In this document: piece after piece, positions 32,548-41,326 of the stretch
Layout of the letters: every line of letters begins with the position of its first letter
Numbering within the stretch: the stretch's first letter is position 1
NCBI GenBank assembly: GCA_903836285.1
Contig: CAILQO010000317.1
Location: forward strand, 1-56,492
Origin: an uncultured Chloroflexota bacterium
Lineage (GTDB): Bacteria; Chloroflexota; UBA11872; UBA12225
Length of the DNA: 56,492 nucleotides
Reading direction: 5' to 3'
Translations under genes and position numbers: made by a program
The notes under the pieces: model-generated
Databases searched by the model: none
What the model was told of the DNA's origin: nothing
What the model saw: the letters and a program-made list of their open reading frames with translations, nothing else

Positions 32548-35349
32548 CTACGGCGTAAGGGGCTGCTCAACCGCCGTCCAGACGAACTCCAACGTCGTCT
32601 GCAGCCCGTCAAAGCGGTTATCGGCGGACTCCGGCAAGGAGACTTTCAGAGTCAGCGTATCCGTCTGGGACGGTTGCAGGACCTTGACCGGGGCAGTCGG
32701 GGCGACCCCGGCGGTGCAACCGGAGGTGTCGTCTCGAGGGATTGCGAAGTCGACCTTCACCGGACCGCAATAGAAGGAAGATAGTCCAGGTCGTCCCACC
32801 GTTAACTGGAGGCCCTGAACCGGGTCGGTGAAGAAGACCGTCCCGTCGCCCGCTCCGGATGCTGGCTGGGACTTGATCCGGTAGCTCAGCGCCTTGCGCG
32901 TGGTGTTGGTCACCGTGATCGTCCGCGAAAGCGTTGTCCCCGGTGCCATGTTGGTGGCGCTGAACACCGGAAGATAGGTCTGACCTGGAACCCCGACCCC
33001 GAACCCGATGGTGCGCGGGACGGCAACCACAAAGGTTCCACCGACCCGCGGTCCATTGATCGCCCGGGTGGTGACGCCCGCTTGGCCGGCAACCGGGTCG
33101 AGCGAGCGCATCGTGGCGCGCAGGACGCCGTTCGCCGAGTCGACACTGAGACCGGTGACCAGCGGCTCAAACCAGTCACTCGCGGTTGAGCTCCACTTGA
33201 GCAGCCGGATGCTGTCCCTGGAAACCGTCCCGTCTGCGAGCGGCGCCGTAAGTCGACTCACGTCAAACGGGATTTCGACGGTGATCGGTCCGGTAAAGAT
33301 TGCCGACGTGCTAAACCGGAAAGGATTCGAGAGGATCAGTTCACCGGATGGCGGGGTGGCCGTGGCGAGCGGTCCGGCATCCGCCTCCAGAAGGGTGATC
33401 CCCGGCTCGGTGACCAGGTCGAACGTGATCTTGGCGACTGCTCCGTCCCCGGGTGCGGCGATGGTTATTGAACTGCCTCGTAAGGTGAAGCCCACGGGTG
33501 TGGCGGTTCGGGTTGGGGTAAGGGTGACGGTTGACGTAAGCGTCGGGGTAAGTGTCTGGGTAGGCGATGGGGTCGAGGTGGCGGTCACCGTCGAGGTCGG
33601 TGACGCAGTCGCCGATGCGGTGGCGGTCGTCGTCGCAGTGACGGTCGAGGTCACCGTGCCGGTAGCGGTCGGTGTGGCAGTACTCGTTACCGTCTCCGTA
33701 ACGGTTACCGTCACAGTAGTTGTCTCGGTTGGAGTCACCGTCGTCGTGACGGTTCCCGTGACCGTCGCGGTCACGGTCGGCGTGCCGGTCGTGCCGACGG
33801 TGGGCGTTGGTGTGCCGGTCCCTGACGGAACGGAAGCGGTCGGTGACCCACTGGCAGTCGTCGGCGTCCCGGAGGCAGGGGCAGCGGTCGGCGATGACGC
33901 TGGCGGCGCTGTAGGCAACCCGAGCGCTGCCGCCGCGGCCGGCTGCAATGTAGGCGTCGCAGGCTCCGTTGCCTTTGCCCGGGGGGTCAGTTGCGCTGCC
34001 GCGGGGTCAAGCTGGCGCATCGCCTGCACGTCCGGGGTCGGCAGGGCGCCGAGCAGGGACGCCTTGGTCGGTGTCGCGCCGCCGTTCGCAACCACGACTG
34101 CCGTTTGGGTTGCACCCGCGGCGGCGGTCTTCTGCGCGGCGAGGGTCGCAATCTGCTGCCCAGCGGCGCCGGTAGGGGTCGGGCCGAGCATCGAAACGGT
34201 CAGGGCACCCTTGAATGGCTGCTTATCGACGACGATTGGCTCCGCGAAGTCAGATACCGACCCGTCGCCCTTCGCGGAGAGCCCCGTCTGCTGGATCTCG
34301 TTCGGCTTGATGTTCGCGGCGAACTGGGTTGATCCCCTGATCGCGCCGTCGTCGATGATTTCGCCCGCAATGTGATAGACGCCGCCAGTGCCTGTTCCGG
34401 TGTAGTTGGCGATGATCGACCGCTCCTTGCCTTCAGCAAGCGCGAACGAGATGGTCTGCGGTTCTGACTGCGGCCCTGAGTACTCGGCACCCGGGATCTG
34501 GTTTGCGACCATGGCGCAAGGGATTTCCGCGACGGAGACACACCCGGTTGAACGCCCCTTGTCGTCAGTGATGAGGGGCACGGCCGGTGATGCCAAGTTC
34601 AGGCGAATCGCGCGCTTCGGCGGCGGTGCGGGGATCGGTGCCGAGGGAGGTTGCCCAGGGGCGGCTGACGATTCGAAGCCGGGCTTCACGATCACCGCAG
34701 TCCGAAGGTCTTGCCCCGGCGCGGCCATTGCCACCTCTCCGTCAGCGGTCGCGACACTCGTGGTTCCGTCCGGCTTCACTTGGACGGCGAACTCCGTGCC
34801 CCGCACCACGGCAACCGCCGATTGGGTCTCCATCGCGAACGAGCTTGCCGGATCCAGGAGCTTGGATACTTTGGTCCAGGTCTTGCCGGCCACGATCTGG
34901 GTGCTGATTTCAGTGGTGACGCCGTTCGGGTTCTTCTCGACCTTCGTGAGGACAATTTCGGCGTCATCCTCGATCGATGTGGTCGAACCCTCGAAGTAGG
35001 TCACGAGGGCTGCGCTTCCGTCGACCGTCTTCACGGCGTCACCCGTCGTCAAGGTCTGCCCGTTGATGCCTTCCTTCCAGTCGGCTGCCCCCTTCGACTT
35101 CACTTGGGCTTGCCCGGAGAGGACCGTCAGGGTTGTCGCGTCGACGAGTGCCACCGCGATGGGCGGCCCCCCACCCGTCAGGACGTTGAGCAGGGGGAAG
35201 TTCCGGTCGCCGGTGATGAAGGCCGTGACGATGACGACAAGGGCCACTGTCGGAAGCCCGAAGATGAACGGCAGCGGCAGTGGTCGTTCGCCCTTCTTCT
35301 TGCCGAGGTTGGCCCCCTGAGGCTTCACCGATCGCGGTGCCGATGCCAT
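32548..35349 (-). CDS. large membrane-anchored surface protein: TM helix, FecR-like domain, Thr-rich linker, C-terminal TasA/camelysin-like module
   Basis: The ATG at 35349 lies 13 nt after the sipW stop; the ORF also extends to a TTG at 35445. TM helix LPFIFGLPTVALVVIVTAFI. FecR-like segment (GDAVKTVDGSAALVTYFEGSTTSIEDDAEIVL...VVRGTEFAVQV). The last 163 aa end in NMAPGTTLSRTITVTNTTRKAL...DNRFDGLQTTLEFVWTAVEQ. Compare TasA NLKPGDKL...FENNGSL...QNKYQGNSIKLQFSFEATQ. Confidence 0.75.
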   Translation of the reverse strand: MASAPRSVKPQGANLGKKKGERPLPLPFIFGLPTVALVVIVTAFITGDRNFPLLNVLTGGGPPIAVALVDATTLTVLSGQAQVKSKGAADWKEGINGQTLTTGDAVKTVDGSAALVTYFEGSTTSIEDDAEIVLTKVEKNPNGVTTEISTQIVAGKTWTKVSKLLDPASSFAMETQSAVAVVRGTEFAVQVKPDGTTSVATADGEVAMAAPGQDLRTAVIVKPGFESSAAPGQPPSAPIPAPPPKRAIRLNLASPAVPLITDDKGRSTGCVSVAEIPCAMVANQIPGAEYSGPQSEPQTISFALAEGKERSIIANYTGTGTGGVYHIAGEIIDDGAIRGSTQFAANIKPNEIQQTGLSAKGDGSVSDFAEPIVVDKQPFKGALTVSMLGPTPTGAAGQQIATLAAQKTAAAGATQTAVVVANGGATPTKASLLGALPTPDVQAMRQLDPAAAQLTPRAKATEPATPTLQPAAAAALGLPTAPPASSPTAAPASGTPTTASGSPTASVPSGTGTPTPTVGTTGTPTVTATVTGTVTTTVTPTETTTVTVTVTETVTSTATPTATGTVTSTVTATTTATASATASPTSTVTATSTPSPTQTLTPTLTSTVTLTPTRTATPVGFTLRGSSITIAAPGDGAVAKITFDLVTEPGITLLEADAGPLATATPPSGELILSNPFRFSTSAIFTGPITVEIPFDVSRLTAPLADGTVSRDSIRLLKWSSTASDWFEPLVTGLSVDSANGVLRATMRSLDPVAGQAGVTTRAINGPRVGGTFVVAVPRTIGFGVGVPGQTYLPVFSATNMAPGTTLSRTITVTNTTRKALSYRIKSQPASGAGDGTVFFTDPVQGLQLTVGRPGLSSFYCGPVKVDFAIPRDDTSGCTAGVAPTAPVKVLQPSQTDTLTLKVSLPESADNRFDGLQTTLEFVWTAVEQPLTP
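33490..33990 (-). repeat. imperfect Thr/Val/Pro/Ala low-complexity coding repeats (linker)
   Basis: Encodes ...TPTVTATVTGTVTTTVTPTETTTVTVTVTETVTSTATPTATGTVTSTVTATTTATASATASPTSTVTATSTPSPTQTLTPTLTSTVTLTPTRTATP. The DNA is a degenerate (GGT/GAC/GGT)n-like tract. Confidence 0.6.

Positions 35350-41326: not shown

Follow-up and report, generated by a model that had tools for sequence, protein, structure and literature searches.

Strand donation among TasA-superfamily proteins is an emerging cross-domain route to biofilm fibers. In Bacillus subtilis, TasA polymerizes by inserting its N-terminal strand into the next subunit, and TapA, which is processed by the signal peptidase SipW, donates a near-identical N-terminus (PMC10151520, PMC9674648); the strand of TasA that pairs with the incoming donor comprises residues 220-230 (PMC10151520). 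For archaeal ABP, Tafi and AbpX-type loci, tips and membrane or wall anchors have been proposed, some of which are predicted to join by strand complementation (PMC9245690, PMC12337348, bioRxiv 10.64898/2026.01.04.697558). Here we analyze a three-gene locus in a 56,492-nucleotide stretch of DNA from an uncultured Chloroflexota bacterium (contig CAILQO010000317.1, assembly GCA_903836285.1); we refer to this whole stretch as the window. The locus consists of gene 1 (product P1), a SipW-type signal peptidase gene (sipW) and gene 3 (product P3). It appears to be related to the Bacillus TasA system in rearranged form, tethering a single giant protein to the cell instead of building a fiber. We tentatively read the operon as a surface display module derived from the TasA superfamily, in which P1 would be docked on a tethered P3, in a host lineage that presumably has a single membrane (monoderm). 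In the literature, we found no paper describing such an arrangement in Chloroflexota.

The locus resembles the B. subtilis tapA-sipW-tasA operon in that a signal peptidase of the endoplasmic reticulum (ER) type is encoded between two exported proteins, in identical gene order. Like TapA, P1 is encoded upstream and appears to combine a SipW-type signal and a donor-strand-like mature N-terminus with an Ig-like body that lacks the TasA fold, and like TasA, the downstream product P3 carries what we identify as a TasA-superfamily domain. However, TasA is a secreted, polymerizing protein of ~260 aa with a SipW signal of its own and a donor strand free at its N-terminus, whereas in P3 the TasA-like domain forms the last ~140-180 aa of a 933-aa protein that is predicted to be membrane-anchored and has no SipW signal. 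P1 is also far larger than TapA (1009 versus 253 aa). A first-pass annotation of this DNA had likened the locus to the Bacillus operon and called gene 3 the fiber subunit. The gene order, the dedicated peptidase and the upstream accessory-type protein bear out the likeness, but gene 3 is unlikely to be the fiber subunit, given that its TasA-like domain lies C-terminally behind ~750 residues, with no SipW signal and no free donor strand. The same annotation had proposed an undescribed surface-fiber or sheath system. Because loci that bring together peptidase, tip and anchor around TasA-superfamily subunits have already been published (PMC12337348; bioRxiv 10.64898/2026.01.04.697558), this is not an undescribed kind of system.

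The closest sequence relatives of the P3 domain are small Peptidase_M73 (M73) proteins with SipW signals, found in Chloroflexota/Actinomycetota-type metagenome loci (L017, L018, L020 and L021; proteins P0124-P0159). Like the window, these loci hold sipW and a larger protein in which a SipW-type N-terminal motif is followed by non-TasA domains; unlike P3, their TasA-like protein is free, 180-230 aa long and equipped with its own signal, and the gene order in L017 and L020 (M73, sipW, accessory protein) is the reverse of that in the window. With Tafi (TafD peptidase, TafC tip, TafF anchor, TafA/E pilins; PMC12337348) and ABP (AbpA/AbpB; PMC9245690), the locus shares the logic of a peptidase, a large strand-supplying tip and a membrane anchor, tip and anchor being proposed roles. 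Unlike the window, Tafi and ABP have major pilins that form long filaments, and some are Tat-dependent; as far as tested, neither their anchors nor their tips are homologues of P3 or P1. In AbpX-type loci (bioRxiv 10.64898/2026.01.04.697558), an anchor is proposed to join TasA-superfamily partners by strand complementation, as we propose for P3. Those anchors attach to the wall through SLH or LPXTG, whereas P3 would use an N-terminal transmembrane segment, a FecR domain and a TxT stalk, and the AbpX-associated peptidase has ten transmembrane helices, whereas the SipW of the window has the usual N- and C-terminal hydrophobic segments.

The evidence that carries our reading begins with the C-terminal domain of P3. 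A phmmer search with the last 316 aa of P3 against 1.84 billion representative proteins (E-values are for this whole library) returned 39 matches, including many small proteins (~180 aa) whose C-terminal ~120 aa align with query residues 177-313 (E 1e-10 to 8e-4). These small proteins carry SipW-type N-termini; nine of the 10 that we scanned (E 2.4e-9 to 8e-4) pass the Pfam PF12389 cut-off, and several also touch the TasA, BsaA and TIGR04088 models. A profile of six P3 orthologs aligned with a profile of the ten small proteins over 123 columns (hhalign probability 99.7%, E 1.7e-25), and a hidden Markov model (HMM) built from the ten small proteins alone scored 83 bits on P3. When a mixed profile was compared with the PDB, B. 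subtilis TasA (8AUR/5OF1) ranked first (E 1.5e-7), with a weak and lower match to AbpX (E 0.007). The P3 motif LPESADNRFDGLQTTLEFVWTAVEQ corresponds to QNKYQGNSIKLQFSFEATQ of TasA (TasA residues 214-232), and the C-terminal motif NxF[DQ]G...F.WTA.[EQ] is kept in P3. By transitive homology, we therefore class the P3 C-terminus, on sequence grounds, as a divergent member of the TasA superfamily. AlphaFold2 (AF2) models the domain as a beta-sandwich core (predicted local distance difference test, pLDDT, 79.5; predicted TM-score, pTM, 0.77) whose first 28 residues fall below 50; a 316-aa model reached a pLDDT of 71.7. The segment equivalent to the TasA N-terminal strand is Gly/Pro-rich in P3 (AINGPRVGG) and has a pLDDT below 50. 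With the domain-only model, Foldseek gave weak matches in the PDB, the best being self-complemented FimA 6ERJ (E 6.4e-4, TM-score 0.40-0.45), followed by other donor-strand pilins (the Saci_0406 thread 7PNB, PapG, FimG and CS20); a two-domain model gave mostly spurious two-domain matches. As a separate observation, six TasA-like domains (the window and five orthologs) and the small protein P0140 gave sub-threshold matches to WxLIP_PGBD (PF06030; E about 0.002-0.005), the peptidoglycan-binding sandwich of WxL-interacting proteins, which may reflect distant kinship or only a shared sandwich topology.

The second line of evidence is the N-terminus of P1. Its n- and h-regions can barely be aligned between orthologs, and the predicted cleavage site after Ala66, which we place by its register with TasA-type signals, is flanked by invariant positions: T(-3) and A(-1) before it, and F(+2), N(+8), G(+10), N(+11) and F(+13) behind it. 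The near-invariant motif of the orthologs reads T-x-A up to the site and [LIV]-F-x-A-x-I-x-N-x-G-N-x-F-G-V-P-x-x-L-A-P thereafter, in which F, A, I, N, G, N, F, G, V, P, L, A and P are invariant. When a profile of the P1 N-terminus was aligned with the small TasA-like proteins, the cleavage site and strand came out in register (hhalign probability 67%, P 5e-5, 25 columns), as compared with a probability of 1.5% for the P3 N-terminus as a control. The claim of the first-pass annotation that gene 1 starts with a SipW-cognate signal receives only moderate support: the alignment is in register and scores better than the control, while the TIGR04088 model of such signals gave no match. P1 also lacked a match to the TapA/YqxM model TIGR04087, and we consider it at most a functional analogue of TapA, which shares the logic of TapA and is not its homologue. 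Nothing was found for P1 in a sequence search of the PDB, and it is without a TasA fold or acceptor domain of its own. Residues 40-61 form its sole hydrophobic segment; the C-terminal tail, which is poorly conserved between orthologs, showed no transmembrane segment, no sorting motif and no LPXTG. As first predicted, P1 is Ig-like: a Pfam search found a Big_5 domain followed by a weaker second Big_5 stretch. We also considered that the mature N-terminus of P1 might mimic segment TFVVAVPRTIGFGVGV of P3, in the way that AFHDI of TapA resembles AFNDI of TasA; this candidate was rejected, as its local score of 32 was reached by 16% of shuffles and by unrelated open reading frames (ORFs).

The opposite end of P3 suggests how the TasA-like domain could be tethered. 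A positively charged tail of ~27 residues precedes the single hydrophobic segment (residues 22-48, with its positive side N-terminal), and a conserved FxTGDRNFP motif follows. Many alignment columns in residues 1-52 are invariant across orthologs; within the tail itself (residues 1-27; window 35269-35349, minus strand), these are P10, Q11, G12, N14, L15, G16, K17, K18 and G20. Conservation this unusual may mean that the tail binds a partner in the cytoplasm or directs sorting or insertion of the protein. We infer that the P3 N-terminus is a type-II membrane anchor and not a cleaved signal, because it does not resemble TasA-type signals and its tail is far more conserved than the n-region of P1. 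A SipW-type signal in P3 (…VTAFITGDRNF) was rejected, since hhalign gave a probability of 1.5% against TasA-like N-termini and of 0.7% against the P1 N-terminus, and since the tail is too conserved for a signal that is discarded. With the N-terminus taken up by tail and transmembrane segment and no SipW signal, the TasA-like domain of P3 would have no free N-terminal donor strand.

Between anchor and TasA-like domain, the only Pfam match of P3 is a FecR domain, one of the models that the first-pass annotation had named for such a search; the same region gives partial matches to Leptospira Lsa33 and LipL45. The Thr/Pro-rich linkers noted at first are present as well, as the Thr-rich stalk of P3 and the Pro/Thr/Ala-rich tail of P1. 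In a 113-residue stretch of the stalk, Thr fills 50 positions in one phase of the alternation and 4 in the opposite phase. The alternate Thr residues are invariant in orthologs (to 68% identity) while the residues in between vary, and tandem repeats in the underlying DNA are only weak, which together suggest selection on the protein pattern. The pattern suggests sites for O-glycosylation or a one-sided Thr beta-structure. The beta-rich domain A behind the stalk matched a module that is repeated in the large secreted proteins P0131 and P0136 (E 8e-7 and 5e-6; PPSG[FY]…YDIS…G.I.[VL]SIPY…L.[LI].HW). Domain A had no Pfam family match, and AF2 draws it as beta strands with a pLDDT of about 50-80.

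The peptidase between the two genes is, by comparison, an ordinary member of its family. It passes the TIGR02228 model of archaeal/ER-type signal peptidase I (76.1 bits, cut-off 51.85) and Pfam Peptidase_S26 (23.9 bits, cut-off 22.9), and falls below the cut-off of 190 for the Bacillus SipW equivalog NF046067 (72.2 bits). From these scores, we regard it as a SipW-type enzyme and not as the Bacillus ortholog. Hydropathy places hydrophobic segments at both of its ends. In 15 aligned SipW sequences (the window and 14 homologues), S52-M53 (SMAP), H93 (VTHRI) and G111, D112, N114 and D118 (GDANDVQD) are invariant, so that the catalytic pair expected of such a peptidase, Ser/His as opposed to Ser/Lys, is in place. 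Ser and His are reportedly required by SipW, a result ascribed to Tjalsma et al. in 2000.

The three genes travel together. SipW homologues form a tight clade at 57-99% identity and then fall to at most 47% identity (E 1e-23 and weaker). On contigs with a clade SipW at 84%, 69% and 58% identity, the order is identical: ligA, the divergent gene 1-sipW-gene 3 unit, and then a convergent GNAT gene and an ABC transporter. The co-conservation of the trio foreseen by the first-pass annotation therefore extends down to 58% SipW identity, and its synteny spans at least 7 GTDB species as well as several metagenome contigs. When one genome per GTDB species was scanned, gene-3 relatives turned up in 7 records, every one a metagenome-assembled genome of lake or freshwater Chloroflexota (Baikal-deep, UBA2235, "TK10" and several mislabelled as Thermoflexus). 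Relative to the window, ortholog identity is 94/86/68% for gene 3, 84/69/58% for SipW and 84/61/45% for gene 1, which makes gene 3 the slowest-changing of the trio and gene 1 the fastest. For the P3 C-terminus, a word-index homologue search gave no matches, and for the N-terminal 420 aa of P1 it gave only two weak Big_5/fn3 matches. Exact look-up in the same collection found orthologs at 45-94% identity, including one cluster of 200 members, so these negatives are false negatives and not evidence of orphan status; word-index negatives are unreliable for proteins as rich in low complexity as these. Public annotation lists gene 3 as "FecR domain-containing" or "hypothetical", sipW as "signal peptidase I" and gene 1 as "hypothetical". 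Public taxonomic labels for this lineage are inconsistent: several lake genome records with this operon (L010, L012) are titled 'Thermoflexus hugenholtzii JAD2', and among the fragment orthologs (P0177, P0195, P0196 and P0201) some are labelled 'Proteobacteria bacterium'.

More distant sipW loci show a similar theme. In L017, the nearest outgroup locus that we examined (44% SipW identity), a 227-aa M73 protein is followed by sipW, the start of which overlaps, and by a 308-aa protein whose N-terminus GTLAILNGRVDNAANSFATTALYAPT leads into a region that is FN3-like by eye. The best BLASTP segment between P1 and this 308-aa protein is the post-cleavage motif of P1 (39% over 33 aa, E 0.002). L020 has an M73 gene, sipW and then a 335-aa protein with the N-terminus …ASGANFTATARSNPSNQFSAAAAF, which continues into a non-TasA repeat domain (faint DUF7483 match). 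None of the accessory proteins of L017, L020 and L018 matches a curated family. The arrangement in L017 and L020 indicates that sipW recurrently has a TapA-like neighbor, a larger non-TasA protein that starts with signal and strand of the TasA type. Tethering also recurs: the unrelated proteins P0137, P0139, P0149 and P0156 (255-488 aa), which were among the phmmer matches, each have an N-terminal transmembrane segment and a long Pro/Ala/Ser/Thr linker that leads to a TasA-like domain at the C-terminus, and lack a SipW signal; tethered TasA-like domains are thus a wider, undescribed architecture. No sipW is present in the available short contigs of P0149 and P0156, and the contigs of all four proteins are too short to judge whether sipW lies nearby. 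A gene overlapping the end of P0139 (L015:1553-3055) encodes a polytopic membrane protein that is O-antigen-ligase-like by eye only, which may hint at glycosylation of the linker.

We propose the following mechanism. P3 would insert as a type-II membrane protein with its short conserved cytoplasmic tail and one transmembrane segment, and its TasA-like domain would be held off the membrane by the FecR-like domain, a middle domain, the ~140-residue TxT stalk (possibly O-glycosylated) and a beta-sandwich domain. SipW would cut the 66-residue signal peptide of P1 after ...GTEA and thereby expose LFVAVIRNAGNAFGV from L67 onward, a segment that would match the donor strand of the small TasA-like subunits in length and register. 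This strand would then insert as a donor strand into the TasA-like domain of P3, in the way that TapA complements TasA with its N-terminus; the expected geometry would place LFVAVIRNAGNAF of P1 antiparallel beside the LQTTLEFVWTA strand of P3. Since P1 has no TasA-like acceptor domain, the chain would stop after one P1. The product would be an anchor-tip pair, with one P1 per P3, that shows a ~940-residue multi-Ig adhesin and forms no polymeric fiber.

Docking of P1 on P3 is the step on which this mechanism turns, and we consider it possible without giving it the better chance. It is suggested by several features of the locus. The C-terminal motif with which TasA receives its donor strand (PMC10151520) is present in P3, the strand-equivalent of P3 itself is Gly/Pro-rich and of low confidence, and its best fold neighbors, though weak, are donor-strand pilins. 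The motif of P1 is invariant behind a variable signal, and apart from that signal P1 contains no hydrophobic anchor. A gene for a free subunit is absent from the vicinity, the genes are tightly coupled and the trio is co-conserved. In addition, the outgroup loci L017 and L020 encode both a small M73 protein and, beside sipW, a larger one that bears a P1-like N-terminal motif, and strand donation by tips and anchors has published precedent (PMC10151520, PMC9245690, PMC12337348, bioRxiv 10.64898/2026.01.04.697558). The slow evolution of P3 and the fast evolution of P1 would fit an anchor and an exposed tip, respectively. A bolder version, in which the TasA machinery has been cut down to a two-protein, non-polymerizing 'strand-snap' where a lone acceptor on a stalk non-covalently captures the SipW-generated strand of one giant adhesin, seems to us doubtful.

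Several results weigh against the display module. The contact between P1 and P3 is purely inferred, and the genome could hold the gene for a free major subunit at another site. The last 163 aa of gene 3 had been described at first as TasA/camelysin-like; this stands as strong profile homology to Pfam-positive small proteins, but direct support from curated models is missing: PF12389 gave no match at E<=10 for P3, for its last 164-180 aa or for any of 6 orthologs, no TasA or BsaA model matched any of these sequences, and NF046066 and TIGR04090 likewise gave none. An ortholog-only profile did not find TasA in the PDB. The comparison of folds is similarly divided, in that AF2 predicts a confident core while TasA is absent from the Foldseek top 50 in the PDB and TM-scores are low (0.3-0.45). 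P3 keeps the segment TFVVAVPRTIGFGVGV, which might self-complement its own domain, and the likeness of this segment to the P1 motif is not significant. For P1, TIGR04088 gave no match at E<=10 to the N-terminal 78 aa, and the hhalign probability of the motif is only 67%; TIGR04088 also gives the small TasA-like proteins of sipW loci 15-16 bits, below its 19-bit cut-off.

In one alternative, SipW just processes P1, and perhaps other proteins, and P3 is an unrelated anchored adhesin of TasA-like ancestry that exchanges no strand, the genes being linked only by a role in the envelope. It would account for structural matches that are generic Ig-like sandwiches with low TM-scores, for the weak matches of all six orthologs to WxLIP_PGBD, another wall-associated sandwich, and for P0149 and P0156, in which the sequence of transmembrane segment, linker and TasA-like domain occurs without sipW in the available short contigs. 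We nevertheless find it rather unlikely. The genes are very tightly coupled (a 4-nt overlap and a 13-nt gap) and strictly co-conserved down to 58% SipW identity, the post-cleavage motif of P1 is conserved far beyond the needs of a signal peptide, and P3 keeps the C-terminal motif that pairs with a donor strand in TasA (PMC10151520).

Alternatively, P3 could be the anchor and P1 the tip or initiator of a real TasA-like fiber, whose small major subunit with a SipW signal is encoded elsewhere. Published TasA-superfamily loci do join major pilin, tip, anchor and peptidase (PMC12337348; bioRxiv 10.64898/2026.01.04.697558), small M73 proteins lie beside sipW in the outgroup loci L017, L018, L020 and L021, and PF12389 has been reported in Chloroflexota (PMC9245690). 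We judge such a fiber unlikely because the ten-protein HMM found no second TasA-like ORF anywhere in the 56-kb window, nor in the ±10 kb around the operon in any of 13 related loci, and because known systems have the major subunit in the same locus, where the synteny of ligA, trio and GNAT leaves no space for one.

A canonical system would make P3 itself a fiber or sheath subunit that polymerizes head to tail through an internal TFVVAV strand, with P1 as a TapA-like nucleator. The gene order equals that of tapA-sipW-tasA and the TasA-like domain is complete, including the segment equivalent to the N-terminal strand, in which AF2 draws strands. Yet P3 has no SipW-type signal, and its conserved cytoplasmic tail and transmembrane segment speak for retention in the membrane; the segment that would act as donor is internal, rich in Gly and Pro, and modelled with low confidence; and ~750 residues of upstream domains would have to fit at each subunit junction, all of which makes this version quite improbable. 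Finally, the FecR domain and the public annotation 'FecR domain-containing protein' could be taken to indicate a transmembrane signaling (anti-sigma-like) protein and a regulatory locus, which is scarcely credible given a cytoplasmic part of some 27 residues, which leaves no room for an anti-sigma domain, a FecR domain of about 100 of 933 residues, and the absence of an adjacent extracytoplasmic function (ECF) sigma factor in the window or its relatives, where the neighbors are ligA, GNAT, an ABC transporter and a MutL-like gene.

The boundaries of the unit were examined at the level of individual ORFs. Three long minus-strand ORFs run head to tail through 32548-39132 (35923..39132, 35363..35929 and 32548..35445), and the tight coupling, coordinates and junctions first given for the three genes are confirmed: the GTG start of sipW (35929) overlaps the TAG stop of gene 1 by 4 nt (tcGTGGTAGcg), and the ATG of gene 3 (35349) lies 13 nt past the TGA of sipW. 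The start of gene 1 is most likely the GTG at 38952 and not position 39132, because the called starts of orthologs align there and the divergent ligA fills the DNA further upstream. Upstream, the plus-strand ligA encodes an NAD-dependent DNA ligase, and its orthologs in related loci have ligase Pfam domains; downstream lies the convergent gene for a GNAT acetyltransferase. With a divergent gene on one side and a convergent gene on the other, the unit comprises exactly three genes. The ligA ORF (38603-41326, plus strand) runs ~500 nt 5' of its likely start and there overlaps the beginning of gene 1, which is encoded on the minus strand, and the mechanical ORF list therefore overstates both ligA and gene 1; minus-strand ORFs at 39274-41857 are shadows of ligA. 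A scan for promoters and terminators gave nothing above shuffle expectation, and no sigma-70 consensus match was found in the intergenic region shared with ligA. G+C is ~65% over the full length of the window, in agreement with the high-GC genome described at first. Coordinates of all features are collected in Table 1.

Table 1. Features of the gene 1-sipW-gene 3 locus and of the outgroup sipW loci. Positions are those of the window unless a locus is named; roles are predicted.
Feature	Residues	Position	Strand	Description
Gene 1 (P1)		35923..38952	-	1009 aa; predicted secreted multi-Ig-like protein with putative SipW-type signal, without C-terminal anchor
P1 signal peptide	1-66	38755..38952	-	Arg-rich n-region, h-region TVVAFAAIAFGALMLAW, c-region ending GTEA; predicted cleavage after Ala66
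P1 post-cleavage motif	67-88	38689..38754	-	LFVAVIRNAGNAFGVPAALAPT; conserved; proposed donor strand and linker
P1 Big_5 (bacterial Ig-like) domain		37990..38343	-	Pfam PF13205, 59.5-66.1 bits, cut-off 23.6; weaker second Big_5 stretch after it
P1 Pro/Thr/Ala-rich C-terminal tail	788-1009	35926..36591	-	T 24%, P 21%, A 18%
sipW		35363..35929	-	188 aa; ER/archaeal-type signal peptidase I; transmembrane segments N- and C-terminal
Gene 3 (P3)		32548..35349	-	933 aa; predicted type-II membrane-anchored stalk protein with TasA-like domain at its end
P3 N-terminus	1-48	35206..35349	-	Conserved predicted cytoplasmic tail (KPQGxNLGKK) and single transmembrane segment
P3 FecR-like extracytoplasmic domain	~105-206	34732..35037	-	Pfam PF04773, 30.2 bits, cut-off 24
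P3 Thr-rich stalk	476-618	33496..33924	-	42% Thr; strict TxTxTx alternation
P3 beta-rich domain A	619-753	33091..33495	-	phmmer matches to internal modules of P0131 and P0136
P3 TasA/camelysin-superfamily domain	~754-933; core ~793-930	32551..33090	-	Shared motifs NMAPG, TVTNTT, GLQL, LPESADNRFDGLQTTLEFVWTAVEQ
Intergenic region shared with divergent ligA		38953..39090	.	Presumed operon promoter region; matching gap in L001 is 132 nt
Outgroup sipW loci		L017:5318-7462; L020:4448-6677; L018:4998-6947		Small Peptidase_M73, sipW with overlapping start, larger protein with TasA-type signal/strand and non-TasA domains

Taken at this strength, the analysis corrects the public labels 'hypothetical' and 'FecR domain-containing' for these genes. 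If the display module is real, a SipW-type peptidase, a donor strand and a TasA-like acceptor would have been rewired to anchor one very large adhesin to the membrane of uncultured freshwater Chloroflexota that recur in lake metagenomes. It makes testable whether donor-strand complementation can serve as a one-to-one surface attachment, and what makes up the outer surface of a lineage without cultured members. If the 'strand-snap' also holds, it would represent a new way for presumably monoderm Chloroflexota to attach large surface proteins, with the TxT stalk acting as a wall-spanning spacer.

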